The translations under genes were made by a program, and so were the position numbers. Below are positions 43,139-62,990 of a DNA stretch of 64,000 nt, piece after piece. Location of the stretch: the NCBI GenBank assembly GCA_039818205.1, contig JBCBUK010000001.1:384001-448000 (forward strand). Direction: 5' to 3'. How positions within the stretch are numbered: the stretch's first letter is position 1; each line of letters starts with the position of its first letter. Below the pieces are notes generated by a model, which saw nothing but the letters and a program-made list of their open reading frames with translations, had not been told where the DNA came from and ran no database searches. The stretch is from Verrucomicrobiota bacterium (GTDB taxonomy: Bacteria; Verrucomicrobiota; Verrucomicrobiia; Opitutales; Cerasicoccaceae).

Positions 43139-43939
43139 CTATCGTTCCGCCTGTACCGTAGATATCTTAGTCGGTTCGAGGGATTTCGTTCGGTCGAGCA
43201 CAACCCGGAAGCCGTAGACGGGTAAGCGAATATAGGAGATATTCCCAACACGATTATGGTGCATCATGTCCGATGGCTCATGCATTCTCCATGAGCCTCC
43301 TTTAAGCACGCGCATATCCGGAGCGCCCTCGTAATAGTCCGAGCACCATTCCCAGACGTTGCCGCCCATATCGTAGAACCCAAGTTCATTCGGCGAGAAA
43401 CTACCGACCGGTGCGGTTTGTTCAAAACCATCAATTTGCAATTGCTGGCCATAGTTCCCCGACCCTTCAGGCGGTGGCCATTCTTTTCCCCATGGGAAGG
43501 CAATCTCGCGGTTAAAACTAGTCCGCGATTTCTTGGATTCATCGACCACAACACCGGCGGCAGCCAACCATTCGGCTTCGGTCGGGAGTCGGTAAAAATC
43601 ACCCTCACCAATGAGCTCTGCCTCCTGCTCTGAGCGCGTCAACCATCGACAGAACAGATTGGCATCTTCCCAGGAGACATAGACCGCGGGCTCATTATCA
43701 GTTTGTTCAAAATAAGGCTTCGACCAACGCAAACCAGTGGCTTCAACAAAGCCCTGGTAGTCGCTAACACGAGTTTCCCAGATGCACATAAGCACGCCCG
43801 GCTCAAGCTCGACAAAGGCCATCTGTAATGAGTTTGACCAATCAGCTACCGCTCGTTCCTCTGCGTCAGCCGCAGTCGTCGAAGCAATCGAAGCAACGAT
43901 TGCGGCTAGGCAAAAACGGTAAAGACGACGGATCATCAT
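43139..43939 (-). CDS. Exported SUMF1/FGE-sulfatase (C-type lectin fold) family protein, probably non-catalytic
   Basis: Signal peptide. Family motifs PAVYVSWEDA, YRLPTEAEW, FPWG, PVGSFSPNELGFYDMGGNVWEW, RVLKGGSW, YGFRVV. The FGE catalytic cysteines after GGS are absent. Confidence 0.88.
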   Translation of the reverse strand: MMIRRLYRFCLAAIVASIASTTAADAEERAVADWSNSLQMAFVELEPGVLMCIWETRVSDYQGFVEATGLRWSKPYFEQTDNEPAVYVSWEDANLFCRWLTRSEQEAELIGEGDFYRLPTEAEWLAAAGVVVDESKKSRTSFNREIAFPWGKEWPPPEGSGNYGQQLQIDGFEQTAPVGSFSPNELGFYDMGGNVWEWCSDYYEGAPDMRVLKGGSWRMHEPSDMMHHNRVGNISYIRLPVYGFRVVLDRTKSLEPTKISTVQAER

Positions 43940-44110: not shown

Positions 44111-45559
44111 ATGAAATTAACATCATCCAACGTGCCGCAACTAAGCGGGCAATCCGCCGACTTCTCAATCGAGGCGGTTTCTGACCAGTTGGCCAAGAAG
44201 GAATCGCGTCAGGCCTTGAACGCAGTTGATCTTTGTCTGATGCTCAACGATGAGGACCGATTCCTCAAGGCAGCGATGCTCCTCTGCAACGAAATCAATG
44301 CGAGATTTCGGTGCGTTCAAGTGGGTTTGGGTATTTTCCGCGGCGGCCATGCGAAACTGGCAGCGTTGAGCAATACACAACGCTTTGACCGCAAAAGCGA
44401 ATTGGTTCGGCGGATGCAATACGCGATGGAGGAAGCAGCCGACCAAGACGAAGAAACAATTTATCCTCGCCCCCGCGAAGACAGCTTCATCTACCGCGAA
44501 CTTGAGAAATACGTTACGGTGGCCGGGATGGAAGCGGGAGCGACCCTGCCCCTTCGCCACAATGGAGAAATTTTCGGCGTTATCCTATTAGAACGTCGCG
44601 ACGAACGCTTTACGCCCGACGAACTCTTTGCCTTGCGCTTAATCGTCGATGTAAATGCCCGGCTTGTTTATGACCTCGAGCGCCGAGATCAATGGATTGG
44701 ACGCCGCTGGGCACGCGGCGCCCGTAAGACTGCCGCGTGGGTTTTTGGATTTGAGCATACCTGGACTAAGATTGGTATTCTGTGCGGCATCGGAGTCATC
44801 GCTTTCCTTATTTTCTATCAGTGGTTTTACCGTGTTGAAGCGGACTTCAGTCTTAAGGCCCAAACCGTTCTGAATATACCAGCGCCATTCGATGGCTTCA
44901 TTGAAGGCGTCGCGGTGGACCTTGGAGACACCGTCAGCCCAAACGCGCCATTGCTTCACCTTGATCGCCAGCAACTTCTTCTCGAGGAGGCCGAAATCGA
45001 AAGCCGTATTAGCCGATACGTTGCCGAAGCCGAAGCTGCCCATAGCCAAGGCCAGTTTAGTGAAGCACAGATTGCCCGCATGCAAGTTCGAGAGGAAGAA
45101 GCGGAACTCGCGATCATACAACACCGTTTGTCTAAGGCCGACTTGATCGCGCCATTCGAAGGGTTCGTGATGGAAGGTGATCTACGCGAGCGCATCGGTG
45201 CTCCGGTTAATCGAGGCGAGCCGCTATACAAGCTAGCACGCATCGACAGCATGTCGGTGCGTATCGAGATTAAAGAAGAAGACATTCATGAGGTATCCGT
45301 TGGTTCAACCGGCGAGCTCGCGTTCGCTAGCCGACCAGAAGAGAAGTTCGCTTTTGTAATTGAAAGTATCGAACCGGCAGCGCAGACCCGACAAGAGGGC
45401 TCAATTTTCGTTGCCCGTGCCAGCTTCGAGGGTGAACCAGTTGAATGGTGGCGCCCGGGAATGCGCGGTGTGGCCAAAATTGACGTCGGAGACCGCAGTC
45501 TCATTTGGGTGCTCACGCACCGGTTGGTCGACTTCGTTCGCATGAAACTCTGGATTTAA
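44111..45559 (+). CDS. GAF-like domain plus HlyD-family membrane fusion (periplasmic adaptor) protein
   Basis: N-terminal GAF-like segment (ATLPLRHNGEIFGVILLER...FTPDEL). One transmembrane helix (IGILCGIGVIAFLIFYQW). Lipoyl half-motifs IPAPFDGFIEGV and LIAPFEGFV flank a helical hairpin. C-terminal WRPGMRGVAKI. Confidence 0.88.
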   Translation: MKLTSSNVPQLSGQSADFSIEAVSDQLAKKESRQALNAVDLCLMLNDEDRFLKAAMLLCNEINARFRCVQVGLGIFRGGHAKLAALSNTQRFDRKSELVRRMQYAMEEAADQDEETIYPRPREDSFIYRELEKYVTVAGMEAGATLPLRHNGEIFGVILLERRDERFTPDELFALRLIVDVNARLVYDLERRDQWIGRRWARGARKTAAWVFGFEHTWTKIGILCGIGVIAFLIFYQWFYRVEADFSLKAQTVLNIPAPFDGFIEGVAVDLGDTVSPNAPLLHLDRQQLLLEEAEIESRISRYVAEAEAAHSQGQFSEAQIARMQVREEEAELAIIQHRLSKADLIAPFEGFVMEGDLRERIGAPVNRGEPLYKLARIDSMSVRIEIKEEDIHEVSVGSTGELAFASRPEEKFAFVIESIEPAAQTRQEGSIFVARASFEGEPVEWWRPGMRGVAKIDVGDRSLIWVLTHRLVDFVRMKLWI

Positions 45560-45565
45560 TCGAGC

Positions 45566-47722
45566 ATGCCGGAAAAGAAGACCTTCAGCGATTCGTGGTA
45601 CCGCATTGCAGACAAGCATGCGACGCTGCGGCATCAGGTCCAAACCGCAAAGCAGTATTTTCGCGGTGATCGCTGGTATGTCTTGCACGATCCGTTTCGT
45701 AACGAATTCTTCCGAGTCACCGAGCAAGCCTACCTCTTTATCGCCCGATTGACCTTAGACAAGACGATCGACGATGTCTGGCGCGAGTGCATGGAACGCC
45801 AGCCGGAACTCGCACCGGGTCAAGAAGAAGTCATCGATGTGCTGGCCCAACTCAACCAGGCCAATCTCATTCAATCAGATCTGCCGGCTAACAGCACCCA
45901 CCTGTTTGAACAGGCACGCAAGAATACCAAGAAAAAGATTCGTTCCCAGCTGATCAACTTCCTGTTCTTACGAATACCGGTATTTAACCCCGACGCCCTG
46001 CTGAATTTCCTCAAACCGTTGGGCAAACTTGCCATCAATCCTATCGGAGCCCTGGTTTGGCTCGGAGTTGTTGGTTGGGCGCTTAACCTCGTATTTTCGA
46101 ACTTTGAATCTGCAACCAATCAGGCATCTGGGTTTCTTTCCCCGCAGAACATACCCTGGATCCTAGTCGCCACGGTTTTGCTGAAAGCCATACACGAATT
46201 AGCCCATGGCATCGCCTGTAAACACTATGGTGGAAGCGTTCCGCAGTTTGGAATCATGCTGATGATCCTTATGCCGCTCCCGTATGTTGATGCGACTTCC
46301 AGTTGGTCGTTTCCCAACAAATGGAAGCGCATCGTTGTAAGTTCAGCCGGCATGATCGTCGAGATATTTGTCGCGGCAATAGCGACCATCATCTGGAGCG
46401 AAACTGGAGCCGGTATGGTCAACGCGGTCGCCTACAACGTTATGTTGATCGCATCGATCACAACGATTCTCTTCAACCTCAACCCGTTGTTGAAGTTTGA
46501 TGGGTACTACATTTTTTCTGACCTTTTCGGCCTGCCAAATTTGCAACAGCGCTCGATTGGCACCTTGCGCTTCCTGATGGAGTATTACTTGTTTGGTTAC
46601 AAAGATGCGATCTGCCCAGCGCGAGATTTCAATGAAGGCGTATGGCTCTCAATCTATGGCGTCGCCTCGGGCATTTACCGGGTCTTCCTCATGCTATCGA
46701 TTTCATTTTTGGTAGCCGAGCGTTTCTTCGAGATCGGTTTGCTATTGGGGATTTTTACCCTGCTGATGAACATCGTGCTGCCTCTGTTGAAGTTTATCCG
46801 ATATGTGTTCACGAATTCACAGCTATCCCGCAATCGGGCCCGCGCGATCATGGTTACGGGTCTAGTCTTTGGCTCGCTCGCATTTGCACTGACCCTGATT
46901 CCGGTTGAGGAACATTTTGTTGAACCCGGCATCGTTCGCAGTGAAGACCGCGCCGTTATTGGAGCGACTGATAGCGGTTATCTGACGGAAGTCATGCAAC
47001 CGACCGGGGTCTATGTCGAAGCGGGCACACCCCTCATGCAACTTCGCGACCCAGAACTTGCCCATGAGATAACGCAAGCAGAACTCGCAATTGAACGCAC
47101 CGAGACCACCCTCATGCAAGCGCAAGAGGACGAGTTCAGCTCTTTACGTCCTCTGCGTAGGCAGGTTCAGCTCGAACAGCAACGCCTCGATCGTCTACTT
47201 GAGCGCAAGGCCGAACAAACCATTCGCGCACCCATCAGCGGGCTGTGGACCTCACCGGACATCAACGCCATGGACGGTCTTTGGATTGGTCGCGGAGATG
47301 CCGTGGGGCACATTGTCAACCCGCAGGATTTGCGCTTCATCGCGGTTATCTCCCAAAGTGAAGCCGCGAATCTGTTTAACCGAAAAATCGAACGCGCAGA
47401 GATTCGCCTTTGGGGCCGTGCGGGCCAACCGCTCATGGCGACAGTGCAGCGTATCATCGAGGCCGAGCAAGCAGCATTGCCATCTCCCGCTCTCGGTTGG
47501 CAAGGAGGTGGTGAGGTTCGCGTCAAGCCCGACGACCCGGAAGGCCGTGAGGTCGTTGATCCCTTTTTCCGCCTCATTGCCGTCATTGAAAATCCCGAAG
47601 AGATAGGAATCGTTGCCAATGAGCAAACGGGCAAAATTCGACTGACAGTGGGCAAGCGCCCGCTCCTCTTTCAATGGGTGCACGACATCCGCCAACTCTT
47701 GCAGGAGCGTCTGAAGCTATGA
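45566..47722 (+). CDS. PqqD-like / M50 (site-2) zinc metalloprotease / HlyD-like fusion membrane protein
   Basis: HELAH (HExxH) at 46193-46207 and NLNPLLKFDG near 46475-46504, within several transmembrane helices. C-terminal MFP motifs (ATDSGYL...G, coiled coil, IRAPISG). Starts 6 nt after the previous gene. Confidence 0.88.
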   Translation: MPEKKTFSDSWYRIADKHATLRHQVQTAKQYFRGDRWYVLHDPFRNEFFRVTEQAYLFIARLTLDKTIDDVWRECMERQPELAPGQEEVIDVLAQLNQANLIQSDLPANSTHLFEQARKNTKKKIRSQLINFLFLRIPVFNPDALLNFLKPLGKLAINPIGALVWLGVVGWALNLVFSNFESATNQASGFLSPQNIPWILVATVLLKAIHELAHGIACKHYGGSVPQFGIMLMILMPLPYVDATSSWSFPNKWKRIVVSSAGMIVEIFVAAIATIIWSETGAGMVNAVAYNVMLIASITTILFNLNPLLKFDGYYIFSDLFGLPNLQQRSIGTLRFLMEYYLFGYKDAICPARDFNEGVWLSIYGVASGIYRVFLMLSISFLVAERFFEIGLLLGIFTLLMNIVLPLLKFIRYVFTNSQLSRNRARAIMVTGLVFGSLAFALTLIPVEEHFVEPGIVRSEDRAVIGATDSGYLTEVMQPTGVYVEAGTPLMQLRDPELAHEITQAELAIERTETTLMQAQEDEFSSLRPLRRQVQLEQQRLDRLLERKAEQTIRAPISGLWTSPDINAMDGLWIGRGDAVGHIVNPQDLRFIAVISQSEAANLFNRKIERAEIRLWGRAGQPLMATVQRIIEAEQAALPSPALGWQGGGEVRVKPDDPEGREVVDPFFRLIAVIENPEEIGIVANEQTGKIRLTVGKRPLLFQWVHDIRQLLQERLKL

Positions 47723-49704
47723 CGCCGACCCGGACATTTCATCATCGACACATCGATCTACCCGCCAAGGTTCCAAGCGGGCTGGACCGGTTGCTACACG
47801 ATAGCTACGGGCGAATCAAGCGGCGGGCTACGATCGCTGGTCAGTTGAAGCGAGAAAGCCAGTGGATTCACCGCCGGGCTGACAAGCTTCGCGAACTATC
47901 CTCAGCCCAGTTTCGTGAAGCCTTGGAGGACATGCAGATTCGCTTTCGCCGAGTTCGCCAATGCCCTTCTGCAGCAAGCGAGCGAGAAGCCCTGGCATTG
48001 GTCGCTGTCGCCACCAGCCGAACTTTGGGTTTGGACCCCTACCCCGTCCAGCTAATGGCCGCGCTTAGTCTAATTCGTGGCTACTTGGCCGAGATGTCGA
48101 CCGGTGAAGGCAAAACGCTTTCCAGTGCGTTGGCAGTAAGCGTCCTCGGTTGGCGCGGCAAACCCGTTCATTTATTCACTGCAAATGATTACCTTGCGCA
48201 ACGCGATTGTGAGGAGATGGTGCCACTCTATCAGTTTTGCGGCCTAACAGCGGGTTATGTCGTCGCGGAAATGGAGCCCGATGACAGACGCCCACATTAC
48301 GCTAGCGACATTACCTGCACGACGAGTAAGGAATTGCTCGCAGATTTCCTCCGTGATCGTTTGAAGACTGACTCAATCAACGACACCCGCCGTCTTCTTG
48401 TTCGCGAACTACTGGGCGGCGGTGGCCCGTCCGACCCGCCGGTGACCCGGGGGATTCATACAGCAGTGATCGATGAAGCCGACAGCGTCATGATTGACGA
48501 CGCAGCAACGCCGCTAATCATCAGTCAAAAGTATCGTAATGAAGCCTTCAATGAGTGCTGTGAAATCGCGCATCAGATTGCCAATAATCTCGTTGGAGAC
48601 GACCACTACAGAGTCAACTTTCAGAAGCGGGAAATTCAAATCACCCCCGCCGGCTATGACCTGATCGAAACCCAAGCCGAACAGTTTCCACGCATGTGGC
48701 AAACCTTCGAACGAAGCAACGAACTCGTAAAGCTATCGCTAACGGCCCGAGAGTTTTTTCGTCGCGACAAAGACTACATTATCCAAGACGAAAAGGTCGT
48801 CATTATTGACCCCTCTACCGGACGTCTCAAGAAAGACAGCACCTGGCGCGGTGGCGTCCACCAAGCAATTGAGATCAAAGAAAACTTGCCCATCAGCGAT
48901 CCCGCTCAAACGCTCGCAAGCCTTAGCTTTCAGAGATTCTTTCGACTATTCAAACATCTCTGCGCAACGACGGGAACCGTGGGTACCACCCGCGGAGAAT
49001 TCTGGCATTTCTACAAACTGCCGACGGTTCGAATTCCGACCCACCGACCATGCGTTCGGCGCCAAATGCCCACCCGGTATTTTGGATCGAACGAACGCAA
49101 GTTCGCCGCCATTGTTGACGAAGTAAAAGCATTTCGCTCAGCCGGTCGGCCAATCCTAATCGGAACGTTTTCCGTTGAAGCTAGTGAAGCACTTGCTGGT
49201 CGTCTAGAGGAAGAAGGCTTGCCGTTCGAGCTGATCAACGCAGCCGAACACGATCGCGAAGCCGCAATCATAAAGGACGCTGGCCACCCGGGAAGAATCA
49301 CCTTGGCCACCAACATGGCGGGACGCGGGACCGATATCAAACTCGCTAAGGGCGTCGCGGATTCTGGCGGCCTCCACGTAATTTGTGCTGAAAGAATGGA
49401 AAGCGCACGAGTAGACCGCCAACTCCACGGACGCGCTGGTCGCCAAGGCGACCCGGGGAGCACTCAAACATTTGTCTCGATGGAAGACGACTTGTTGCGC
49501 CAGCAATGCGGATCCAAGATGTGTGGAACCGTTGGGCAGGCGCTCGACAGCTCGGCTCCCGGCGCAAAACTGATTGCGGCACGCCTGACCAATCGAGCTC
49601 AACGTGAAGGCGAAAAGAAAAAACGCAAACAGCGAGAAAGCGTCATGAAGATGGACCATTGGCTCGAAGAATCACTCGCCTTCTCCGGAAGCAGCGGTCT
49701 CTAA
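47719..49704 (+). CDS. Secondary, C-terminally truncated SecA-like ATPase (661 aa)
   Basis: EMSTGEGKT, TANDYLAQRD, IDEADSVMID, IIDPSTGR...W.GGVHQAIEIKE, ATNMAGRGTDI, RVDRQLHGRAGRQGDPG. Start placed at the ATG overlapping the upstream stop (ATGA, 47719-47722). Confidence 0.92.
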   Translation: MTPTRTFHHRHIDLPAKVPSGLDRLLHDSYGRIKRRATIAGQLKRESQWIHRRADKLRELSSAQFREALEDMQIRFRRVRQCPSAASEREALALVAVATSRTLGLDPYPVQLMAALSLIRGYLAEMSTGEGKTLSSALAVSVLGWRGKPVHLFTANDYLAQRDCEEMVPLYQFCGLTAGYVVAEMEPDDRRPHYASDITCTTSKELLADFLRDRLKTDSINDTRRLLVRELLGGGGPSDPPVTRGIHTAVIDEADSVMIDDAATPLIISQKYRNEAFNECCEIAHQIANNLVGDDHYRVNFQKREIQITPAGYDLIETQAEQFPRMWQTFERSNELVKLSLTAREFFRRDKDYIIQDEKVVIIDPSTGRLKKDSTWRGGVHQAIEIKENLPISDPAQTLASLSFQRFFRLFKHLCATTGTVGTTRGEFWHFYKLPTVRIPTHRPCVRRQMPTRYFGSNERKFAAIVDEVKAFRSAGRPILIGTFSVEASEALAGRLEEEGLPFELINAAEHDREAAIIKDAGHPGRITLATNMAGRGTDIKLAKGVADSGGLHVICAERMESARVDRQLHGRAGRQGDPGSTQTFVSMEDDLLRQQCGSKMCGTVGQALDSSAPGAKLIAARLTNRAQREGEKKKRKQRESVMKMDHWLEESLAFSGSSGL

Positions 49705-49737: not shown

Positions 49738-51591
49738 CTACAGCGCATCCACCACCTGAACGCCGATTTCTTCGAGCAGTGTTCCCGACGCTTCAAAGAG
49801 ATCGACCCGCGACTTGGCTAGATCGTTCAAGACCGTGAGTTCACGCAGGCGCGCGTTCGACAAATCGGTATGAAAGTTCAAGGTGTCGTAGATTGATTTC
49901 TCGCCCGATTCGACCAAGATTTGCTCTTGGTCAATCTCTTGTTCAAAAAGCTCACGAAGCTCCTGCGCATTGGCGAGCCGTCGTTCCTGAAGCTCAATCT
50001 GCTCAAGCGCTGATGTGACCTCGTGCACGATCGTGTTCTCGATACTTGACCGCTCTAACATCAGCCGTCGACGGGCGCTGAGAACTTCGCGGACTCGATT
50101 GTCGGCTTCGACGTTTCCCCATGGACGGGAGAATACAACCCCCACCGAAACTTCCGGAAAGTCTGCCCGTACGGTTTCACCATAACTGCTAAAGGGATTG
50201 TCGGAGATACCGCGGAGGCCAGCCGACGCCACAATATCCAACTGAGGCAATTGCTCATCGCGCGCAGCGGTCAACTCATAGCGACTCCGCTCGATGGCCA
50301 AAGCGGCGCGATGGTAGTCCGGACGCCTCTGCAGTGCGCGGCCAATCAGGTATGACGCATTAAAATCCGGGGTCTCACCAACCACCCAACCCTCGGGCAA
50401 CGCATCCTGCATCGCCTCCCGTTCTGCGCGTCCGGTTGTGAGCAAGAACAACAACGAGCGAGCATCCTCCAAACGTTGCTCGGCTTGAAACAAGTCGTCA
50501 CGGCTCTCCGTAATTCTTGCCTGAATCGCAGCAATATCGCGAATTGATGCTTGTCCGCGTTCTACGTCCCGGCGTTTTTTCGACAGCAATGCCTGGAACA
50601 CGTCGATCTCAACTGCCTGCAATCGCATCTCCTGATAAGCCAAGAGAAAATCGTAGTATATGCGCATTGTTCGAGCGATGATGATGAGTACCTCACCGCG
50701 AAATTCCGTATCGGCAATACGCTTGTTCCGCTGAGCAATACGCAGCGGAGCCAGGTTGGCGTCCGTTCCAAATCCCCGCATCAAGGGCACCGTTAAATCG
50801 AGCCCAAAGAAGCTCTCAAACTCTGGATCAAAAACCGAGCGCTCGTCCTCGCGGGTCAAATCAGTGGTCGAGGCAACAAGCGTGCTTCTTAGGCCATAGG
50901 TCACGCCATAGGGCATGCGTTGCTCAAACTTCAACTCAACGGAACCGACGGATGCGTCAAATGGATTTGAGTTTCCGTTAAGTCCAACAAGGTCTTCAAC
51001 TTGACCGCCCGATGAGATAAACTCTTGAGTGTTCTGAGGCACGCGACTCTCGCGCAGCGTTCCGCTTGTCTCAAAGCGCGGATCAAAGGCACCGAAAGTT
51101 TGGCGCATACGGTAATCCTCAATCTCGATGACACTTCGCTGGATCTGAATATCAAAATTCTCTTCCAAAGCCATCTGAAGTGCCCATTGCAATGGCAACT
51201 TTGGGTAATGAACAGCAGGTCTTTCCGGGTTCGGTAACAGGTCTCGCAGATAAGCTGGACGCAAGTAGCGACGCTCAAACTGCTCCGCATGCAGATTGTC
51301 CAAAAACAACCAACCGCGAGATCCTTCGGACCATTCAGAAAGATATCCAGCCGGGTCCGCTTCTGGAGTAATCCGGGGCGTCATACCCGCCTGCTCTGGT
51401 TCCTCATCGAACAGCTCCGGCTCGACAAAAGGCAACGAATCAGCCGGATTCATTTCAACCGATTCCTCGGCCGGTATCCGGTCATCCCCCCGTCGAAAGT
51501 CGTAGTAACGCTTCTCCGTTGGCGTATCAACCTGCGCAGTCGCGACCGACAACCAAGTTAAAAAGAGGCATCCAATGAATTTGACCCACAT
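49738..51591 (-). CDS. TolC-family outer membrane efflux protein with an N-terminal extension
   Basis: Signal peptide. LQWALQMALEENFDIQ, GAFDPRF, LTVPLMRGFG, ALQRRPDY and DEQLPQLDIVAS follow the two-repeat outer membrane efflux pattern. Confidence 0.88.
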   Translation of the reverse strand: MWVKFIGCLFLTWLSVATAQVDTPTEKRYYDFRRGDDRIPAEESVEMNPADSLPFVEPELFDEEPEQAGMTPRITPEADPAGYLSEWSEGSRGWLFLDNLHAEQFERRYLRPAYLRDLLPNPERPAVHYPKLPLQWALQMALEENFDIQIQRSVIEIEDYRMRQTFGAFDPRFETSGTLRESRVPQNTQEFISSGGQVEDLVGLNGNSNPFDASVGSVELKFEQRMPYGVTYGLRSTLVASTTDLTREDERSVFDPEFESFFGLDLTVPLMRGFGTDANLAPLRIAQRNKRIADTEFRGEVLIIIARTMRIYYDFLLAYQEMRLQAVEIDVFQALLSKKRRDVERGQASIRDIAAIQARITESRDDLFQAEQRLEDARSLLFLLTTGRAEREAMQDALPEGWVVGETPDFNASYLIGRALQRRPDYHRAALAIERSRYELTAARDEQLPQLDIVASAGLRGISDNPFSSYGETVRADFPEVSVGVVFSRPWGNVEADNRVREVLSARRRLMLERSSIENTIVHEVTSALEQIELQERRLANAQELRELFEQEIDQEQILVESGEKSIYDTLNFHTDLSNARLRELTVLNDLAKSRVDLFEASGTLLEEIGVQVVDAL

Positions 51592-53799: not shown

Positions 53800-54519
53800 C
53801 TAGACTGGCTGTTCCGCGTCAGGAAACAAGGCGTCTCGAATCGCTGGGCGGATTGCATCGTAGTCATGATCTGGACTCAGTGGCTTCCAACCGACGCCGT
53901 CCAGGTAGAAATCGTAGTTTCTGAATCGGACGGATTCTGGTGTCACGTCATTCATCCCCTCAAACAGCGGTAAACCTTCGCTGAGCAGGTGGGACCCCTT
54001 CGACAGGCTGATAAGGCCCATGACAATCGTTTCGTCATTTGGACCATCAGGAGCCAGGTCGCCGCAGGCGCGCGCCTGCGCCATGATCTCGTAGCAGGTG
54101 CCCATGCATTGCGCTGAGGCTTCCTGCCACCCCAGCTGCTGGGCCTCAGCGGTTTTCTCCCAGAGCGATTTCGTGCGGGCAAGCTGCATTACCTCGAACC
54201 CATTGCAGATATGATGGGCGAGGACTTCATCAGCAATCCCGATCGCACACATACGCTCACGCGGCGGGCCATCATGGGTCAGCGCGCGGGCGAAATACTC
54301 TGCCCGGCGTCTAAAATGGTCGACCGCCACGGCCAGGACGAGATCCTCCTTGTTTTTAAAGTGATTGTAGATCGTGGCTTTCGAATATTCGATCGTCGCG
54401 GCAAGCTCATCCAGGTTAAGCCCCAGATACCCGCCAGCCGCCAACAATCGGTCAGCCTCACGGATAATTAGCTGGGTTCTTTCAGCCCACTCACGTTGTT
54501 TTCGTGTCAGGATACTCAT
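53800..54519 (-). CDS. TetR/AcrR family transcriptional regulator
   Basis: Helix-turn-helix GYLGLNLDELAATIEYSKATIYNHFKNKEDLV. Divergent from the RND genes. Confidence 0.93.
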   Translation of the reverse strand: MSILTRKQREWAERTQLIIREADRLLAAGGYLGLNLDELAATIEYSKATIYNHFKNKEDLVLAVAVDHFRRRAEYFARALTHDGPPRERMCAIGIADEVLAHHICNGFEVMQLARTKSLWEKTAEAQQLGWQEASAQCMGTCYEIMAQARACGDLAPDGPNDETIVMGLISLSKGSHLLSEGLPLFEGMNDVTPESVRFRNYDFYLDGVGWKPLSPDHDYDAIRPAIRDALFPDAEQPV

Positions 54520-54544
54520 TTAATTTCGAATAAACATTCACGAG

Positions 54545-54576
54545 AATTGACTATTTTTCAAGTTGTGACTTAAAGT
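54545..54576 (+). promoter_or_regulatory. Candidate sigma70 promoter and TetR operator for the RND operon
   Basis: TTGACT (54547-54552), 18 nt, TAAAGT (54571-54576). The inverted repeat TTGA-N7-TCAA overlaps the -35 element. Confidence 0.4.
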
Positions 54577-54586
54577 TAAGAAAAAG

Positions 54587-55675
54587 ATGAGAGTTAAACC
54601 ATCACTACTAATAGTCCTGCTGGCCCTATCGGGATGCGGCAAGGCTCCGGAAGCGCCAAACGCTCCCCGGGTTCTCAAGGTGGATACCGGACAAATCGTC
54701 GCTCAAGGCAGTTTGACCCGCGAATCACGCTTTTTTGGCCTCATCGAGCCCCGCCAAACCAGCGAGCTCGCCTTCGAACTTTCCGGAACCGTTGAAGAGA
54801 TATTCACCAACGAGGGCGACGACATCAGAAAAGGTGACCGTCTCGCCCGGCTTGATCACGCACGCCTAGAGGCCAGAATAACTGCGGCCGACGCGGCCGT
54901 CAACGAAGCGGATGCCACCCGCCACCTAGCTGAGATCACTTTTGAGCGACTTGATCGGCTTCTGTTGGAAGATGCGGCCTCCCAGCAAGAACTAGACGAA
55001 GCGCATCAAGCACTGCGCGTGGCACAGGCAACGGTTGACCGCTTGAAGGCAGAAGCTGACGCCCTGCGGGTGGACCTATCCAAAACGACGCTCTACGCGC
55101 CTTACGACGGATCGGTTGTTCGACGTTATGTCGATGAGGGTGCCAGTATTGGTCCCGCCCGAGCAGTCCTGCAAGTCATCGAAAACGAAACTTTGGAAGC
55201 AAGGATCGGCCTAGCTCCCGATGCCGCGCAAGGCCTTGAAGTAGGCGACGAAGTCAATTTGCGCCTACCAGGCAAGCCTCACGAAGCATTCACGGGAAGC
55301 ATTCTCCGACTGATTCCGTTGCGCGAAAGCCGCACGCGAACGGTTGATGTAATTGTCGATATACTGGCTCCCGGAATTCATTTGCATCCCGGTGATGCAG
55401 TTGAGGTTGTCCTCCCGCGGCAAGAAAAAGCACCGGGATTTTGGATTCCTCGAGAATCGCTCACCGAGAACGTTCGTGGTCTTTGGTCGGTGTTCGTTGT
55501 CGACGAAAACGAAGACGGACATCCCGTAGTTTCTCGCGAGCCCGTCGAGATCATCCACTTTGAATCCGACCGAGTCTACGTCCATGGACCATTGGATTCT
55601 GGCGATCAGATTGTTATCTCCGGGATACATCGACTGGCTCCAGGCCAACGCGTTGATCCACAAGTCGGTTCATAG
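54587..55675 (+). CDS. RND efflux periplasmic adaptor lipoprotein
   Basis: Lipobox LSGC. LAFELSGTVEEIFTNEGDDIRKGDRLARLD, LYAPYDGSV, GIHRLAPGQRV. Confidence 0.93.
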   Translation: MRVKPSLLIVLLALSGCGKAPEAPNAPRVLKVDTGQIVAQGSLTRESRFFGLIEPRQTSELAFELSGTVEEIFTNEGDDIRKGDRLARLDHARLEARITAADAAVNEADATRHLAEITFERLDRLLLEDAASQQELDEAHQALRVAQATVDRLKAEADALRVDLSKTTLYAPYDGSVVRRYVDEGASIGPARAVLQVIENETLEARIGLAPDAAQGLEVGDEVNLRLPGKPHEAFTGSILRLIPLRESRTRTVDVIVDILAPGIHLHPGDAVEVVLPRQEKAPGFWIPRESLTENVRGLWSVFVVDENEDGHPVVSREPVEIIHFESDRVYVHGPLDSGDQIVISGIHRLAPGQRVDPQVGS

Positions 55676-55677
55676 CA

Positions 55678-58600
55678 GTGAAAGATTCGCGGCCACCACA
55701 CCTGCTTGTCCGACTCTTCTACGAGAACCGGCACCTGCTGATATTGACCATCGTGCTAATCATGGTGGGTGGATGGACGGCGTTGCAATCGATGCCACGA
55801 CTCGAAGACCCTGTCATCGTAAACCGCAACCCACAGATCATCACCGCGTTTCCCGGGGCAACGGCTGACCGCGTCGAGGCATTGGTGAGTGAACCGATCG
55901 AACAAGCACTGCTCGAGGTTCCAGGGATCAAGTTCATCCAATCAAACTCGCGCAACGGCATCTCACTCATCGTAATCGAACTGCTTGACTCGATCAACGA
56001 GCCAGAAAACAAACGAGTCTTTTCCGAGATTAGAGATCGCTTAGGCGATGTGAATGCGCAGCTTCCCGAGGGCGTTCAAGCCCCGTTCTTTGATGACAAA
56101 CGCAACGCGGTCGCCTTCACGATGATCACCGCGCTTACCTGGCCAAACGACGAAACCAATCCACGTATACTGACACGCGTCGCAGAAGACCTAGCGCGGC
56201 GTTTACGGACGATTCCTGGCACAGAGCTCGTCCGACTCTACGGTGCCGCTGACGAGGAGATATCAGTCGAGGTAGACCCTATCCGGCTGGCCAGTCTTGG
56301 CCTGCGCATGACTGAAATCGTTACCGCCCTAGAACTGGCGGATAGCAAGACCCCGTCCGGCGCAGTCTATACGGAATCGGCCGACTTCACTCTAGAGGTC
56401 GCAGGTGAGCTCGATTCGCTCGACCGGATCGCTGAGACCCCAGTTGCCCAAGACGCTAATGGTCGAACGGTGCGCCTCTCCGATATCGCTAAAATCGGCC
56501 GCGGCGAACGGGCACCACCAAACACGATTGCCCTGATCGATGGCCAGCGCACTGTCTTGGTTGGTGCACGAGTCCGCCCAGACAGCTTGGTGAGCACATG
56601 GACGGAACGCTCACAGGAAAAGCTCCAAGAATTTAGGCAAGAGGTTGCTGGAGGAATCGAAGTCGAAGCCATCTTTCTCCAGGACGAGTACATCACCGAT
56701 CGTTTGCGCTCGTTAACGGAGAATCTTCTGCTTGGAGCTGGCGTCATCATTATAGCTATCCTTCTCACCATGGGCTACCGCTCAGCGTTGATCGTGAGTT
56801 TTGCCCTCCCCCTCACCGCGGCATTAACGCTATTCGTCATTAACATCAGCGGCGGTAAGCTACACCAAATGTCGATCTTCGGCATGATCATCGCACTCGG
56901 CCTCCTGATTGACAACGCGATCGTCGTTACCGATGAAGTAAGAAAACACAAACGCGCGGGCCATGGTCATGTCGACGCCGCGTCGCGCGCAATCAGGCAC
57001 CTTGCACTTCCACTTTTCTCGTCGACGATTACGACGGTACTATCCTTCATGCCGATCGCATTGCTCTCCGGCGGTGCCGGAGACTTCGTAGGTTCAATCG
57101 CAATTAGCGTTATTATAGCCGTGCTTGGTTCCTATGCGATTTCATTAACCGTTATCGCTTCACTCGCGGCCAGTGGCCGAACCGGGACGGCGACCAAGCC
57201 CGGTCCATTTGAATGGCTAAGGAGCGGAATCAATGGCCGCCCAATCGCTGGCCTAGCCCGCCGTATATTGCGCTTCTTCGCTAAGCATCCCTTGGTTGCG
57301 ATCGGCGCTAATCTGATAGTTCCCATCGCTGGATTCACCTTGGCTGGCACCCTTGGTAATCAATTCTTTCCACGGACGGATCGCGACATGTTCGAGATCG
57401 ACCTTTGGCTTCCGCAGGGCACATCCATTGCCCAAACACAGCGCTATACCAGGGAGGTCGAGGCATTTCTCCAGGCCGATCCCGCGGTAAACCGCGTATC
57501 GTGGACAATTGGTTCGAGTTACCCAACCGTCTACTACAACCTGATCATGAACCAAGACGGATCGCCGCACTACGCGCACGCAACCGTATGGACCGATGAT
57601 CCCGATGCCACTGACCGCATCGTGCGGAAGACTCAGGCATGGGCCGACGAACACCATCGAGCCGTTCAGCTCGTTGCTCGCAAGTTTGCTCAAGGACCGC
57701 CAGCTGACTCAGATGTTGAATTCCGCATCTATGGGCCAGATATTATGACGCTGCGTGAACTGGGCGACCAGGTCCGCGTCGTCCTTGCGGAGCATCCGGA
57801 AATCTTGCACACGCAAACGACCATTCCTCCCGGTGAACCCAAGATCTGGGCAACACTGGACGACGAACAACTAGGCCTCGCCAACCTATCACCGGTCGGT
57901 GCTGCCAACCAACTTGAGTCGCAACTGCGTGGCTTCACGGCGGGCGTCGTCATCGAAGGCGTTGAGGATATACCGATTCGGGTTCGCCGCCCAAACGCCG
58001 ACCGCAACTCCGTTGCGAATGCGTCCGACTTCGTGTTCACCCCGACTAATGCTCAACCCAACGAATGGATTCCACTCGAAGCACTTGGCAAACTCGAGTT
58101 GCTACCCAGCGTCGCAGGTATCGAACGCCGCAACCAACAACGGATGAACAAAGTCCTCGGCTTTGCCCAAACTGGAGCCCTGCCAATTGACATCACGAAT
58201 AACGTTCTCGCGGAACTCGATGAACGCGGGTTCCAGCTACCGCCTGGGTATCGAATCGAACTCGGTGGCGAATCAGAAAACCAAGGTAATGCAGTGGGCA
58301 ACCTCGCAAAGTTTCTACCTGTTTTGGTCGTCGCAATGATGGGTGTCTTGATCCTCAGTTTCCGCTCGGTCCGGCACGCGGGTATCCTCATTATCGGTGC
58401 ACCACTAGCCGTCGGCTACGGTCTCTTTGCGACTTGGCTCCTGGGCTTTCCACTGAGCTTCAACACCATCATCGGATCCATGGGGTTGATGGGACTCGCC
58501 TTCAACGACAACATCGTCGTCCTTGCTGCCATTACAGCAAAGGCCCGCAAGGATGGCATCGATATCGACTCGATCGTTCATGAAACACTGGATTGCGGAC

Positions 58601-58806
58601 GGCACTTGATATCCACAACCCTTACAACCATCGGGAGCTTTATGCCGTTGCTCTTGATTATTGGCGGCGAGTTCTGGCCCCCTCTAGCAATTGTCCTCGT
58701 TGGCGGTGTTGGTGGTGCGACGCTGATCGCTTTTACCTTAACGCCATCTCTCTACTCGCTTCTATTTGTGAGCCGGAAGAATAAAACAAACGGACAAACC
58801 GCCTAA
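55678..58806 (+). CDS. RND efflux permease (AcrB/AcrD/AcrF family)
   Basis: 1042 aa. PRLEDP, FPGATADRVEALVSEPIE, GMIIALGLLIDNAIVV, QFFPRTDR, and a 12-transmembrane pattern. Confidence 0.95.
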   Translation: MKDSRPPHLLVRLFYENRHLLILTIVLIMVGGWTALQSMPRLEDPVIVNRNPQIITAFPGATADRVEALVSEPIEQALLEVPGIKFIQSNSRNGISLIVIELLDSINEPENKRVFSEIRDRLGDVNAQLPEGVQAPFFDDKRNAVAFTMITALTWPNDETNPRILTRVAEDLARRLRTIPGTELVRLYGAADEEISVEVDPIRLASLGLRMTEIVTALELADSKTPSGAVYTESADFTLEVAGELDSLDRIAETPVAQDANGRTVRLSDIAKIGRGERAPPNTIALIDGQRTVLVGARVRPDSLVSTWTERSQEKLQEFRQEVAGGIEVEAIFLQDEYITDRLRSLTENLLLGAGVIIIAILLTMGYRSALIVSFALPLTAALTLFVINISGGKLHQMSIFGMIIALGLLIDNAIVVTDEVRKHKRAGHGHVDAASRAIRHLALPLFSSTITTVLSFMPIALLSGGAGDFVGSIAISVIIAVLGSYAISLTVIASLAASGRTGTATKPGPFEWLRSGINGRPIAGLARRILRFFAKHPLVAIGANLIVPIAGFTLAGTLGNQFFPRTDRDMFEIDLWLPQGTSIAQTQRYTREVEAFLQADPAVNRVSWTIGSSYPTVYYNLIMNQDGSPHYAHATVWTDDPDATDRIVRKTQAWADEHHRAVQLVARKFAQGPPADSDVEFRIYGPDIMTLRELGDQVRVVLAEHPEILHTQTTIPPGEPKIWATLDDEQLGLANLSPVGAANQLESQLRGFTAGVVIEGVEDIPIRVRRPNADRNSVANASDFVFTPTNAQPNEWIPLEALGKLELLPSVAGIERRNQQRMNKVLGFAQTGALPIDITNNVLAELDERGFQLPPGYRIELGGESENQGNAVGNLAKFLPVLVVAMMGVLILSFRSVRHAGILIIGAPLAVGYGLFATWLLGFPLSFNTIIGSMGLMGLAFNDNIVVLAAITAKARKDGIDIDSIVHETLDCGRHLISTTLTTIGSFMPLLLIIGGEFWPPLAIVLVGGVGGATLIAFTLTPSLYSLLFVSRKNKTNGQTA

Positions 58807-59506: not shown

Positions 59507-61957
59507 CTAGCTCGTCGCTCCTTCCCGAGCCGCAATTCGCGCAACGCGGTCCGACCAGCTTTCACTGGAAACTTGGTCGAAGAGCGACTCAGCCCAGAGT
59601 GGAAAAGCAAAGGGCGTGATCTTTTCCGTAGCCACAACATGAAAAGGCATTTCATTGATCCGCTGCAATGTCGACAACAAGCGAGTATGCTCCAGCTGTC
59701 GATCCAGCAATTCCCGTTCAGCCTGAAGAAGGAGTCTATTGTCCGTGTCGTAACGTGCAAAGGTATCGTAAAGCAGACCCGATGACATCTGGATGTTTCG
59801 AGCACTCTTAGGCTGTCCCGGATAGCCTTGAAAGACTAAACCAGCCACGCGCGCGATTTCTCGAAACTGACGACGGGCCAACTCCGCAGAGTTCATGCAA
59901 TCCAATAGATCCACCTGCAAGTTCTCCACTGAAAAGAGTTGTCGAACAAGCGACTCATCAACCTCAAACTCTTTGGCTGACTGAATGGAAAATCCATAGT
60001 CGTTGATCGTCGTTTTTAGAGTTAGTGGTGTGATCTTTGACAATCGAAATGCCACTAGCGCAGCCAATCCTTCGTTTACCAAACGCCCCGCAAAAGGATA
60101 AGCAAATAGGTTCCATGTCGATCGGTAGTGGCAACTCTCTGTGAGCAGCCAGCGACTACCTGGCAACAGCGATCGTTCCTGCTGCTGAGTCAACAAGGGC
60201 GATAGACGGCGCAACTCATCCGACTGCGCTCCCTCTGTGGACCATGACTGGATTTCTCGAGCAACGGCATCAGCCAGCTCGCTGGAAAGTGGAGAACGTC
60301 CGCCAGCCCAAGACGGGGTCACCCCGGCGGCACGCCGCGCGTTCTTAACATACGCCGTCATCTGGCGAAAGCGGATAAGCTCGAGACGTTTCCCCGCGAA
60401 ATTAAAAACATCGCCCGGATTCAAGCGAGAGATGAAGCCCTCTTCGATCATCCCGAGTGAACCACCTTTCTGATAGCGCACCACGATCTCTGAATCTCCC
60501 GTGATCGTGCCTATACTCATGCGGTGCATCCGCGCAAGCGACTGCCCGCTTCCTGCCAATGCCCCGGACTCGCTCACACAGACTTTGCGATACTCCGGAT
60601 AGGCCGTCAGCGCACCGACCTCTCCTTTCGCAAACCCGAGCACCCAGGTCCAATCCAAGGGGTTCAATTCATTGAACGCGGCCGTTGACAAGATCTCATC
60701 CCGTAACTGCGCTTCAGTAACATCGCCACTCAGGGCCACCGTAATGACATGCTGCAACAAGACGTCCAAAGAGTTTTTTAAAGAAATGCGTGGTTCAATC
60801 TCACCGCGCCCCAAGGCAGAACGAGCCGCTGCAAATTCCAAAATCTCCAGAGCGTTGGTTGGCACACCATAAATCACGCTGGGCACTCCCGGCTGGTGGC
60901 CACTGCGCCCGGCTCGCTGGGTCAAGCGAGCAATTCCCTTCGGCGAGCCGACTTGGACCACTTGCTCGACCGGCGAGTAGTCGACACCCAAGTCTAAACT
61001 GGAGGTGCAAACAACGGCTTTGACCTCGCCTTCATCGATGGCCTGCTCAATCGCTAAACGCCGATCACGATCGACCGAGCCATGATGGATCTCAATGGAT
61101 GCTGCAAGATCAGGAGCAGCCTTGCTGAGGCTTTGATACCACAACTCGGCTTGGCTACGCGTATTGGTGAAAACCAAGGTCGAGCGTGCGTGACGAATCT
61201 GCTCCACCACGGCATGGACCAACCGTATCCCCAAATGCCCGGCCCAGGGAAAGCCTTCGATGTCATCGGGCAACAACGTGACGACACGGATCTCTTTTTG
61301 GTGATCACCGCGCACGATGATTGCATCCCGATGATTCGGACCCACCAGCGTTCGGAGGGCATCATCCAAGTTGCCAATGGTGGCTGACAATCCCCAAACT
61401 CGAACATCCGGCACCAAGCCCTTCAAACGCGAGATGCCCAGCTCAGTCTGCACGCCGCGTTTCGACCCCATCAGTTCATGCCACTCATCGCAAACGATAC
61501 AGCGCAGCTGACGAAAGCTCTTCCGCACGTCCGCGTAGGACAACATCAAACTAAGCGACTCGGGTGTGGTAATGAGCACATTCGGTAGCTGCTTCCGTAA
61601 GCGAGCCTTGTCGCGACTTGAGATGTCCCCGTGCCGAACCGCGACTGTCCACGGCAAATCGATGCCAGAGAAAAAATGCTGCAGGGCATCACCGGTGTCA
61701 TTTGCCAAGGCCTTGAGCGGAGTAATCCACAACACTCGTAATCCTGTAGCGGCTTTGCCAGCTAACTGCTCCTCAAGCCCCTCTTGGGCTGGGCCGCCCA
61801 TCGCGGCAAAGGTCTTACCAAAGCCCGTAGGCGCATGCACCAGCCCGCTTTTGCCAGCGCGGTAGCCTTCCCAGGCGGTTTGCTGGAACGGGAAGACGTC
61901 CCAGCCCTGGCCTTGAAACCAGTCTTCGATCCGTCCACCTGTTACAGTCTGGCTCAT
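59507..61957 (-). CDS. Ligase-associated DNA damage response DEXH-box helicase (Lhr-core type)
   Basis: APTGFGKT, ITPLKALAND, TTPESL, DEWHELMGSKRG, LSATIGN, HHGS, SLDLGVDY, QRAGRSGH, HRMSIGTI. Confidence 0.93.
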   Translation of the reverse strand: MSQTVTGGRIEDWFQGQGWDVFPFQQTAWEGYRAGKSGLVHAPTGFGKTFAAMGGPAQEGLEEQLAGKAATGLRVLWITPLKALANDTGDALQHFFSGIDLPWTVAVRHGDISSRDKARLRKQLPNVLITTPESLSLMLSYADVRKSFRQLRCIVCDEWHELMGSKRGVQTELGISRLKGLVPDVRVWGLSATIGNLDDALRTLVGPNHRDAIIVRGDHQKEIRVVTLLPDDIEGFPWAGHLGIRLVHAVVEQIRHARSTLVFTNTRSQAELWYQSLSKAAPDLAASIEIHHGSVDRDRRLAIEQAIDEGEVKAVVCTSSLDLGVDYSPVEQVVQVGSPKGIARLTQRAGRSGHQPGVPSVIYGVPTNALEILEFAAARSALGRGEIEPRISLKNSLDVLLQHVITVALSGDVTEAQLRDEILSTAAFNELNPLDWTWVLGFAKGEVGALTAYPEYRKVCVSESGALAGSGQSLARMHRMSIGTITGDSEIVVRYQKGGSLGMIEEGFISRLNPGDVFNFAGKRLELIRFRQMTAYVKNARRAAGVTPSWAGGRSPLSSELADAVAREIQSWSTEGAQSDELRRLSPLLTQQQERSLLPGSRWLLTESCHYRSTWNLFAYPFAGRLVNEGLAALVAFRLSKITPLTLKTTINDYGFSIQSAKEFEVDESLVRQLFSVENLQVDLLDCMNSAELARRQFREIARVAGLVFQGYPGQPKSARNIQMSSGLLYDTFARYDTDNRLLLQAERELLDRQLEHTRLLSTLQRINEMPFHVVATEKITPFAFPLWAESLFDQVSSESWSDRVARIAAREGATS

Positions 61958-61988
61958 CTAGGCTACCCTCTATGATTGTGTCTGAAAC

Positions 61989-62168
61989 TCAGGCATTACC
62001 CGATACTCCCTTGGCCGATGATCGCGCACGCCGGCAGCGATCCGAACAGTAGACGACCGCATCCCAACAACCCGCCCACTTCTTGCGCCAGCTGAAAGGG
62101 CGTTGACAAACGGGACATATCTTTTGGGGCAGATCTGCCTTTGAAACCACTTTTCCGTTTAGTCGCAT
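61989..62168 (-). CDS. DUF2256 family small Cys-rich protein (59 aa)
   Basis: [22 protein letters not shown]...[16 protein letters not shown] at 62168. Confidence 0.88.
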
Positions 62169-62294
62169 GGGAGGCAGAATAGCGCATTCTCCAGTGATTT
62201 CAAACGCCGCGATCAGGAATTCCAAACAAGAAGTCATTGGCCGATAAGGAGATAAATAATTCTCAATTTTCTGAAGAAATAAACCAGTAATCAC

Positions 62295-62324
62295 TTGATC
62301 ACCGTGTAATTTTGAGCATACTAT
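62295..62324 (+). promoter_or_regulatory. Candidate imuA promoter with a degenerate LexA-like box
   Basis: TTGATC (62295-62300), 18 nt, TACTAT (62319-62324). TGTAA-TTTT-GAGCA (62305-62318) matches 7 of 10 positions of TGTTC-N4-GAACA. Confidence 0.35.
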
Positions 62325-62329
62325 TTTGA

Positions 62330-62977
62330 GTGATTGAGAATGCGGACAAACGTGCGGCCACATTCCGAAAATTGACCTCGAAAATTGGGGTGGTTTCGGC
62401 GGCTAGCCTGCAGCTGACGCAAGAGCTGCGGCCCAACCATAGCGGATGGATCCCTCCATCTCGCATGGTCGAATGTGTCTGTACGGGCTCAAGCGTCGGC
62501 GGACAATCGCTGGTCGAACTGCTCTTGGCGAAAAACCTGAAAAATGGCAGTTTTGCGGCCTTTGTTGACCTCGCCAATGGCTTTGACCTGGACTCCTTGA
62601 GCCTTGGATTGGAAGAACGGATGCTATGGGTTCGCTGCCAGAATGAAACGCAATCATTGAAGGCCTTAGACCTCTTGTTACGTGATGACAACTTCAGCTT
62701 GGTAGTGGCTGATCTACGCAGCTCTAGCAAGCACTTGCGACAAGCCCCCGCCCGATCCTGGTATCGCTTGCAACGTCTCAGCCATCAACGTGAAGGCTAT
62801 TGCGTGATACTGGCCCAGGAACACCTCTCACCCTGCATGGACCTGTCATTAACACTCTCGGCCAACCATCGCTTCGCCACCTTAAATCAAGGGCGCACGA
62901 ATATCCAGCAGACCATCGCGCAGCAAATAGCGGAACAGCTGGATAGCCCCGTAACAACGATCGCCGAAGCCATCTAA
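62330..62977 (+). CDS. imuA: ImuA-like RecA-fold mutagenesis accessory protein
   Basis: [46 protein letters not shown]. Degenerate Walker A. Lies directly upstream of an ImuB-like gene. Confidence 0.72.
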
Positions 62978-62990
62978 CCACAGCCCATAT

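Follow-up and report, generated by a model that had tools for sequence, protein, structure and literature searches.

The window analysed here is a 64,000-nucleotide stretch of a contig from a Verrucomicrobiota bacterium, in which positions are numbered from the window start. At 45566-47722 on the forward strand, an open reading frame (ORF) encodes a 718-residue fusion protein, in which a domain resembling PqqD and the recognition elements (RREs) of pathways for peptides that are ribosomally synthesised and modified post-translationally (RiPPs) is joined to an M50 intramembrane metalloprotease and a HlyD-type adaptor, as identified from the ORF translation, the NCBIfam model NF041824, and homologues. 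The PqqD/RRE-type winged-helix domain occupies residues 14-106 (45605-45883; from hhalign, AlphaFold2, VIA-align, and Pfam on relatives), and the HlyD-type periplasmic adaptor part occupies residues 452-718 (46919-47719; from TIGR01730 and a comparison of the family profile with solved adaptors). The zinc-binding and catalytic motif HELAH at residues 210-214 (46193-46207) and the motif NPLLKFDG with the third zinc ligand Asp312 at residues 306-313 (46481-46504), all likewise on the forward strand, were read from the sequence and are conserved. A sequence-only reading of 45566-46520, which corresponds to codons 1-318 and of which residues 37-102 were quoted, had proposed a PqqD/RRE-like domain fused to an M50 protease with intact zinc ligands and to a membrane fusion protein; this three-part architecture holds.

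The fusion gene lies in an operon on the forward strand. The gene of a 482-residue GAF-HlyD adaptor protein (44111-45559; Pfam HlyD_D23, E = 2.6e-15; GAF match below the cut-off) ends 6 nucleotides before the fusion gene starts. On the other side follows a truncated SecA-like ATPase (676-residue ORF, 47674-49704; SecA_DEAD, E = 1.8e-81; PPXD, E = 1.1e-21; P-loop_SecA, E = 5.4e-54). Its likely start is the in-frame ATG at 47719, which shares an ATGA with the fusion gene's TGA stop; the two genes are translationally coupled. Motor domains and the preprotein cross-linking domain (PPXD) are retained in the SecA-like protein, whose match to the 787-position secA profile is confined to positions 5-618; a canonical SecA is encoded elsewhere in the source genome. 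Convergent with the operon, a TolC-like outer-membrane channel of 617 residues is encoded at 49738-51591 on the reverse strand (Pfam OEP, E = 2.5e-33). Since none of the ORFs scanned from 43.1 to 64 kb showed an ABC-transporter domain, the locus lacks the ABC energiser of classical type I secretion. As had been noted earlier, there is no RiPP precursor or maturase nearby, the neighbours in the window being the FGE-sulfatase-like, GAF-HlyD, SecA-like, and TolC-like genes.

On the reverse strand, the gene of a giant LEPR-XLL protein (2-42736) leaves the window and has an open frame of 16,270 residues in the genome. Residues 41-61 of the giant protein (42554-42616, reverse strand; core FELDQLEPRILLSA) match the LEPR-XLL model NF012209 with an E-value of 1.1e-6 and 28 bits, above the 17-bit cut-off, and no Pfam match was found in the leader region. 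In about 14,245 residues scanned, the Pfam content consists of two weak matches to RTX calcium-binding repeats only. An alignment of the window leader with 17 leaders from related loci reads F-x-x-E-x-L-E-x-R-V-L-L-S-A-D-P, in which L, E, R, and L are invariant; the consensus has also been given as F-x-L-E-x-L-E-x-R-V-L-L-S-A. According to PMC8567305, a motif of the LEPR type has been seen since 2004 as a putative signal for export, to which no machinery was assigned. It is described there as the 'Planctomycete cell-surface signal peptide' RRLxxExLExRxLLA (PF07595; Studholme et al. 2004, as cited in PMC8567305), and T. immobilis has 52 genes with the motif, of whose products 20 were detected, eight of them in the sodium dodecyl sulphate-soluble fraction only. 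SecA, M50, and HlyD do not occur in PMC8567305, which leaves the export machinery open. The giant protein carries the same type of N-terminal motif and is the probable cargo of the apparatus encoded beside it. Taken together, the comparisons below suggest that the fusion protein may read the LEPR tag of the giant protein for its trimming and export.

In residues 1-195 of the fusion protein, the sole Pfam match is PF05402 (E = 0.018, 15.8 bits, cut-off 23.4 bits), which spans residues 38-102 and profile positions 2-67 of 67. Residues 1-130 alone reach 13.8 bits, again below the cut-off and over the full profile length. When the N-domains from 43 of 80 related loci were aligned with that of the window, PF05402 was found at E ≤ 1 in 30 of the 44 sequences, with a best E-value of 7.3e-8. 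This alignment was compared by hhalign with an alignment of standalone PqqD-family ORFs from genomes of the same phylum (17 of the 27 extracted), which gave a probability of 96.3% and an E-value of 1.5e-9 over 89 columns, covering residues 14-106. The PqqD-like homology, for which an HHpred-type check had been proposed, was therefore confirmed. The AlphaFold2 model of residues 1-130 (predicted local distance difference test, 85; predicted template modelling score, 0.76) has strands at 18-21, 26-32, 35-42, and 47-52, followed by helices at 53-59, 68-78, and 86-98. Both this model and VIA-align agree with a winged-helix fold, that is, an antiparallel sheet and then three helices. Of the three-strand, three-helix pattern that had been predicted, the PqqD-like fold and the three helices were recovered; the strands are four in number, with an extra one at the N-terminus.

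Structural neighbours of the model are largely from RiPP pathways. When VIA-align was run exhaustively over 48,161 chains, the leader-bound lasso B1 protein 6jx3_B came first (Z = 9.3, 84 residues aligned), and further RiPP-type matches were TbiB1 (9.0), PqqD (8.6), TigE (8.1), and the PbtF RRE (7.5). PqqD or RiPP-pathway enzymes account for 15 of the best 25 rows, as labelled from entry titles. The top four rows from Foldseek are also lasso B1 and TbiB1 with bound leader peptides (E = 0.014-0.032); the sequence identity of lasso B1 and TbiB1 to the N-domain is 13-17%. In the ESM Atlas, PqqD clusters make up 20 of 30 named feature matches, with a score of 0.95. A profile search of 1.84 billion representatives found the N-domain in 2486 proteins at E ≤ 1e-3; among the best 150 of these matches, the domain stands at the extreme N-terminus in 149, and most of the proteins have about 700-740 residues. 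The N-terminal 100 or so residues are a PqqD/RRE-type domain, homologous to the PqqD family.

Several of the searches weigh against a leader-reading role of the domain. As a single sequence, the window N-domain stays below the Pfam PqqD cut-off, the N-domain alone has no NCBIfam match, its alignment profile has no match among PDB sequences at E ≤ 10, and Foldseek of the model against the PDB gave nothing at E ≤ 1e-3. VIA-align also gives equal Z-scores to non-RiPP winged-helix domains (8hkr_B and NovN, 9.2 each), four unrelated winged-helix enzymes lying between 7.9 and 9.2. Since RRE-like and non-RiPP winged helices score alike, the function of the N-domain does not follow from the fold alone. 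Its most conserved residues are found in strand 47-52, in which R50 is invariant, and in helix 86-98; this face is presumably the peptide-binding side in solved RRE complexes. Five proteobacterial loci have ALTQEE instead of APGQEE in the RRE helix, and their leaders have no aromatic residue at position -5; as these loci belong to a single clade, the co-variation was not counted as evidence.

The membrane core of the fusion protein is a predicted M50 zinc protease, whose hydrophobic segments 198-218 and 285-306 hold the HExxH and NPxxxxDG motifs. At least 2113 homologues of the fusion protein exist, and those listed mostly have 712-743 residues. H210, E211, H214, N306, P307, D312, and G313 are invariant in all 28 aligned relatives, which were drawn from 120 matches listed of at least 2113. 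The Pfam family PF02163 matches the fusion protein with 23.3 bits (E = 4.5e-5), below the gathering score of 27.2, and its precomputed annotation is present on most of the relatives listed. The closest curated families are RiPP leader peptidases, both matching below their cut-offs: the daptide protease family NF041824 (E = 5.8e-49, 167.2 bits, cut-off 300) and the YydH/LiaK family NF058609 (E = 8.3e-8, 32 bits, cut-off 225). The fusion protein is related to the NF041824 family, yet is no member of it. The M50 core supplies 137.9 of the 167.2 bits, and the N-domain alone has no match in NCBIfam, the daptide model included.

The C-terminal part can be assigned to the HlyD-type adaptors. TIGR01730 matches the fusion protein with an E-value of 7.5e-10, HlyD_D23 and HlyD_3 of Pfam fall just below their cut-offs with the single sequence, and profile positions 438-593 of the family match the solved adaptors 6vej_P (E = 4.5e-8) and MexJ (E = 5.4e-7). 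Against the PDB, the full-length profile found only adaptor/biotinyl-type chains and one weak S2P match (E = 0.47). A hydropathy script gives about seven membrane helices in the fusion protein, and a K/R-rich stretch at 118-128 precedes the first. From such stretches before the first and the last helix, the N-domain would be cytoplasmic and the adaptor periplasmic.

A genome scan for relatives of the fusion gene found 533 loci, of which 80 were kept for comparison; they belong to Verrucomicrobiota, Planctomycetota, Desulfobacterota, Fibrobacterota, Proteobacteria, and other groups. The GAF-HlyD, fusion, and SecA-like genes were all detected in 62 of the 80, and 13 of the 18 loci without the full set have a contig end beside the fusion gene. 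The other five (L031, L033, L053, L064, and L073) have room for a partner yet are without one, and some genomes may encode the apparatus in separate pieces. Among these five, the SecA-like gene is not adjacent in L031, L053, and L073, and the GAF-HlyD gene is not adjacent in L031, L033, and L064. In 37 of the 80 loci, there is a TolC-like/OEP homologue upstream of the operon. The genes of L056 and L061 run from TolC through the small HlyD, GAF-HlyD, the fusion gene, and the SecA-like gene to the LEPR giant.

The source genome (4.85 Mb, 99.97% complete) contains a single NF012209 match and, 2.8 kb from it, a single copy of the fusion gene. Among 201 genomes of the phylum, NF012209 was found at E ≤ 0.01 in 18: fourteen have strong matches (E < 1e-3), in ORFs of 615 to 20,466 residues, and four have weak ones, in ORFs of 38-354 residues. 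Orthologues of the fusion protein (full length, more than 590 bits) are present in 15 of the 201 genomes, including all 14 with a strong LEPR-XLL match, so that 14 of the 15 carriers have such a match. Leader and orthologue lie within about 3 kb of each other in seven of the 14 genomes.

Similar associations are seen in the related loci. A hidden Markov model built from the leaders themselves found a LEPR-type ORF in 19 of the 80; since 16 of these loci supplied training leaders, the new detections are L002, L028, and L044. Where at least 1 kb follows the SecA-like gene (53 loci), a LEPR-type ORF on the same strand starts within 2.5 kb in 16. A strict 13-position motif gave 16 matches in 15 of the 80 loci, compared with none in reversed sequences and none in 20 shuffles, and the adjacency of leader and operon recurs in several phyla. 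The strict motif replaced a 9-position expression that proved unspecific (18 forward versus 9 reversed matches in the orthologue set, 10 versus 6 in the paralogue set). Three loci from the first leader expression, L024, L043, and L063, were dropped because the motif lay deep in the ORF or flanking conserved residues were missing.

Paralogues of the fusion protein, mostly with 245-370 bits and 24-27% identity to it, are carried by 32 further genomes of the phylum sample, which are without a strong LEPR-XLL match. Of 39 paralogue places, 26 were compared. The N-domain is mostly kept in all 26, with matches that begin at residues 17-86, and no SecA-like gene is found near any of the 26; the five paralogue genomes that were searched whole have the canonical SecA only and no second one. 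Leader-like ORFs flank the paralogue in five of the 26 loci, from two genera. In the first genus (L119 and L120), leaders of the forms LKLE-x-LEQRQLLA and L-x-LE-x-LETRTLLAG stand on open frames of about 510 and 1,075-1,100 residues, measured stop to stop (L119: 2442-5663 and 15647-17182; L120: 2259-5567 and 15771-17342). NF012209 misses the L119 and L120 leaders at E ≤ 0.01, and the curated model may therefore under-count this leader class.

In the other genus (L083, L121, and L122), LEPR-like leaders are found on small proteins of about 110-145 residues, with the core FEIEELESRQLF followed by AAAA. These belong to a RiPP-like cluster (L083: 8241-18481, reverse strand; also in L121 and L122), in which two leader proteins come first, followed by ORFs of 63 and then 212 residues, a radical SAM/SPASM enzyme, and a standalone PqqD (E = 7.9e-11); a HlyD adaptor and then a small HlyD come next, and TolC and the M50-HlyD paralogue close the row. 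The conserved 212-residue protein has no Pfam match, and the cluster contains no SecA-like gene. None of the 80 orthologue loci contains a homologue of the radical SAM, PqqD, or 212-residue gene. The same leader type is present in a bona fide RiPP-style gene cluster, and the earlier suggestion that the fusion protein is 'borrowed from RiPP logic' fits as far as the logic is concerned. Because leaders occur beside SecA-less paralogues, the RRE-M50-HlyD protein and the adaptors, not the SecA-like motor, are common to the leader-associated loci. This suggests that the common leader reader is the M50 fusion or its adaptors rather than SecA. The SecA-like motor would go with those systems that have large to giant known cargoes (about 270 to 20,000 residues).

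Overall, it is fairly probable that the fusion protein acts as receptor, peptidase, and adaptor of a TolC-linked exporter of LEPR-XLL proteins, with no ABC transporter in its operon. That it would read the leader is supported indirectly by the one-to-one pairing in its own genome, the co-occurrence in the phylum, the adjacency in 19 of the 80 loci, and the SecA-less paralogues. The proposed sequence of events is as follows. The cytoplasmic RRE domain would capture the leader of the 16,270-residue protein, which may bind in the groove between strand 47-52 (R50) and helix 86-98 (Q86, L93, Q95, and L96), by analogy with solved RRE-leader complexes. The RRE domain would then hold the leader at the M50 active site, where the M50 domain would remove it, and the SecA-like ATPase would drive the unfolded chain, from the N- to the C-terminus, into a duct of adaptor and TolC.

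A number of observations weigh against this reading. G169 (92% complete) carries the orthologue yet gave no LEPR-XLL match; the genomes of the phylum sample are kin, and the co-occurrence counts overstate their independence. Of the 53 loci with downstream DNA, 37 have no adjacent LEPR-type ORF, and 21 of the 26 paralogue loci are without a recognisable leader ORF; in the paralogue set, the reversed control gave three matches and the shuffled control none. The window leader itself has D at position -3, where at least 90% of the aligned leaders have E, and an expression that demands E at this position misses it. Finally, the seven-helix topology has the hydropathy script as its sole source.

Among the other explanations, the one that fares best, though it is unlikely, is that the PqqD-like domain serves as a docking or regulatory module, which binds the GAF part of the partner adaptor or plugs the protease, and that the leader is read elsewhere, for example by the preprotein-binding domain of the SecA-like protein. 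That non-RiPP winged-helix domains match the model as well as RREs do, and that the SecA-like protein retains its preprotein cross-linking domain, would agree with such a role. However, paralogous systems with no SecA-like gene either nearby or genome-wide still have the N-domain and leader-like cargo, the homology is specifically to the PqqD family, and the residues under the strongest conservation lie on strand 47-52 and helix 86-98, the peptide-binding side of RREs.

It is rather improbable that the M50 domain is no leader peptidase and acts instead as a gate, a pore-forming scaffold, or a quality-control protease for stalled cargo or adaptor processing, so that the leader stays on the cargo. 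In favour of such a role, the strongly conserved leader block ends at LLSA with no obvious cut-site signature, and Kamneva et al. (2015; PMC4452313) proposed the M50 protein as a membrane pore that replaces the ABC transporter. Invariance of the catalytic His-Glu-His-Asp set in 28 of 28 relatives argues, by contrast, for retained proteolysis, and the closest curated families, daptide and YydH/LiaK, are leader peptidases, even if both matches (E = 5.8e-49 and 8.3e-8) are below the cut-offs. That operon and giant gene are mere neighbours, the apparatus exporting something not visible here, is very improbable: although the two are divergent with the FGE-sulfatase-like gene between them, and although most loci with downstream DNA have no adjacent leader, it is contradicted by the one-to-one pairing in the source genome, by the orthologue in 14 of 14 strong LEPR-XLL genomes and the strong match in 14 of 15 carriers, by the adjacency in several phyla, and by the motif counts (16 versus none reversed or shuffled).

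The gene set as such has been described before. From computational work, Kamneva, Poudel and Ward (2015, PLoS One; PMC4452313) reported a 'secondary SecA_DEAD' locus, which comprises a secondary SecA_DEAD protein, Peptidase_M50/HlyD, and GAF/HlyD, sometimes OEP, and no ABC transporter, in Verrucomicrobia and Planctomycetes. A second, shortened SecA_DEAD protein beside M50/HlyD and GAF/HlyD genes is what the window contains. The 2015 paper differs in that it names no cargo and no recognition domain (PMC4452313): the words PqqD, LEPR, leader, and giant do not occur in its main text, and neither PqqD nor PF07595 occurs in nine of the 19 supplementary files. L056 and L061 have the small third HlyD adaptor of the Kamneva locus; none could be recognised beside the window operon, and matches to it within the source genome are generic adaptor proteins. 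A 274-residue ORF beside the TolC-like gene was tried as a candidate for this adaptor and ruled out, as it is unrelated.

The proposed peptidase-exporter can be compared with several known systems. In lasso peptide pathways, the RRE hands the leader to the peptidase, and lasso peptidases need the RRE, according to PMC10885120. The lasso B1/B2 system (6jx3; TbiB1, 5v1u) supplies the best structural matches of the N-domain; it differs in having a soluble cysteine protease, a short peptide substrate, and no fused export adaptor. M50 leader peptidases also exist in RiPP pathways, and EpeP is thought to cleave and export its peptide (PMC10885120). The proteases of the daptide type (NF041824) and of the YydH/LiaK/EpeP type (NF058609), which are the closest curated families, have neither a HlyD fusion nor a SecA-like partner, and the window protein is far below their cut-offs. 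Type I secretion shares with the window system the HlyD-type adaptors and the TolC-type channel, and the window cargo carries RTX-type repeats; its leader signal is N-terminal, unlike that of RTX proteins. In bacteriocin exporters, the exporter's own peptidase, which is a C39 cysteine peptidase, removes an N-terminal double-glycine leader. Compared with type I secretion and the C39 exporters, the window system has a truncated SecA ATPase, an M50 protease with an RRE, and no ABC transporter in the operon.

More tentatively, the RRE-M50-HlyD protein could both receive the signal and cleave the leader in a distinct N-terminal-leader secretion class, TolC-ducted and without an ABC transporter; such a class would have its type of leader, and perhaps its origin, in common with a RiPP-like peptide pathway, and would use the truncated SecA where the known cargoes are large to giant. 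In effect, a leader-guided peptidase-exporter logic may have been applied to giant proteins. The SecA_DEAD/M50/HlyD gene set (2015) and the leader motif (2004) were already known. In the open-access literature, no paper was found that links PqqD/RRE with M50/HlyD, or LEPR-XLL with this machinery, nor one that treats daptides together with M50 or metalloproteases. The RRE on the M50 subunit would join a signal from 2004 that had no machinery and a locus from 2015 that had no cargo, as described in PMC8567305 and PMC4452313. RRE and leader would offer a concrete, mutable receptor-signal pair. If the proposal is true, RRE-type leader recognition would not be limited to short modified peptides but would include some of the largest proteins of bacteria, and the LEPR-XLL leader could be a portable secretion tag.

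Of the remaining genes in the window, the one at 43139-43939 on the reverse strand encodes the FGE-sulfatase-like exported protein (Pfam FGE-sulfatase, E = 8.1e-36), whose membership in the export system is uncertain. It has a signal-peptide-like N-terminus, and its best NCBIfam match is a PorK/GldK ring lipoprotein of the type IX secretion system, which is weak (E = 3.8e-19) and far below the cut-off. Among the 80 related loci, this neighbour is shared only with the close relatives L001, L002, and L069. A few kilobases from the operon, 53800-58806 encodes a separate efflux unit, probably unrelated to it, of a TetR regulator, an adaptor (362 residues), and an AcrB-type resistance-nodulation-division pump (1042 residues). 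At 59507-63998, there follow an Lhr-type helicase (816 residues), a RecA-like protein of 215 residues, and an impB/mucB-family polymerase, the last two of which presumably resemble a mutagenesis cassette of the ImuA/ImuB type.

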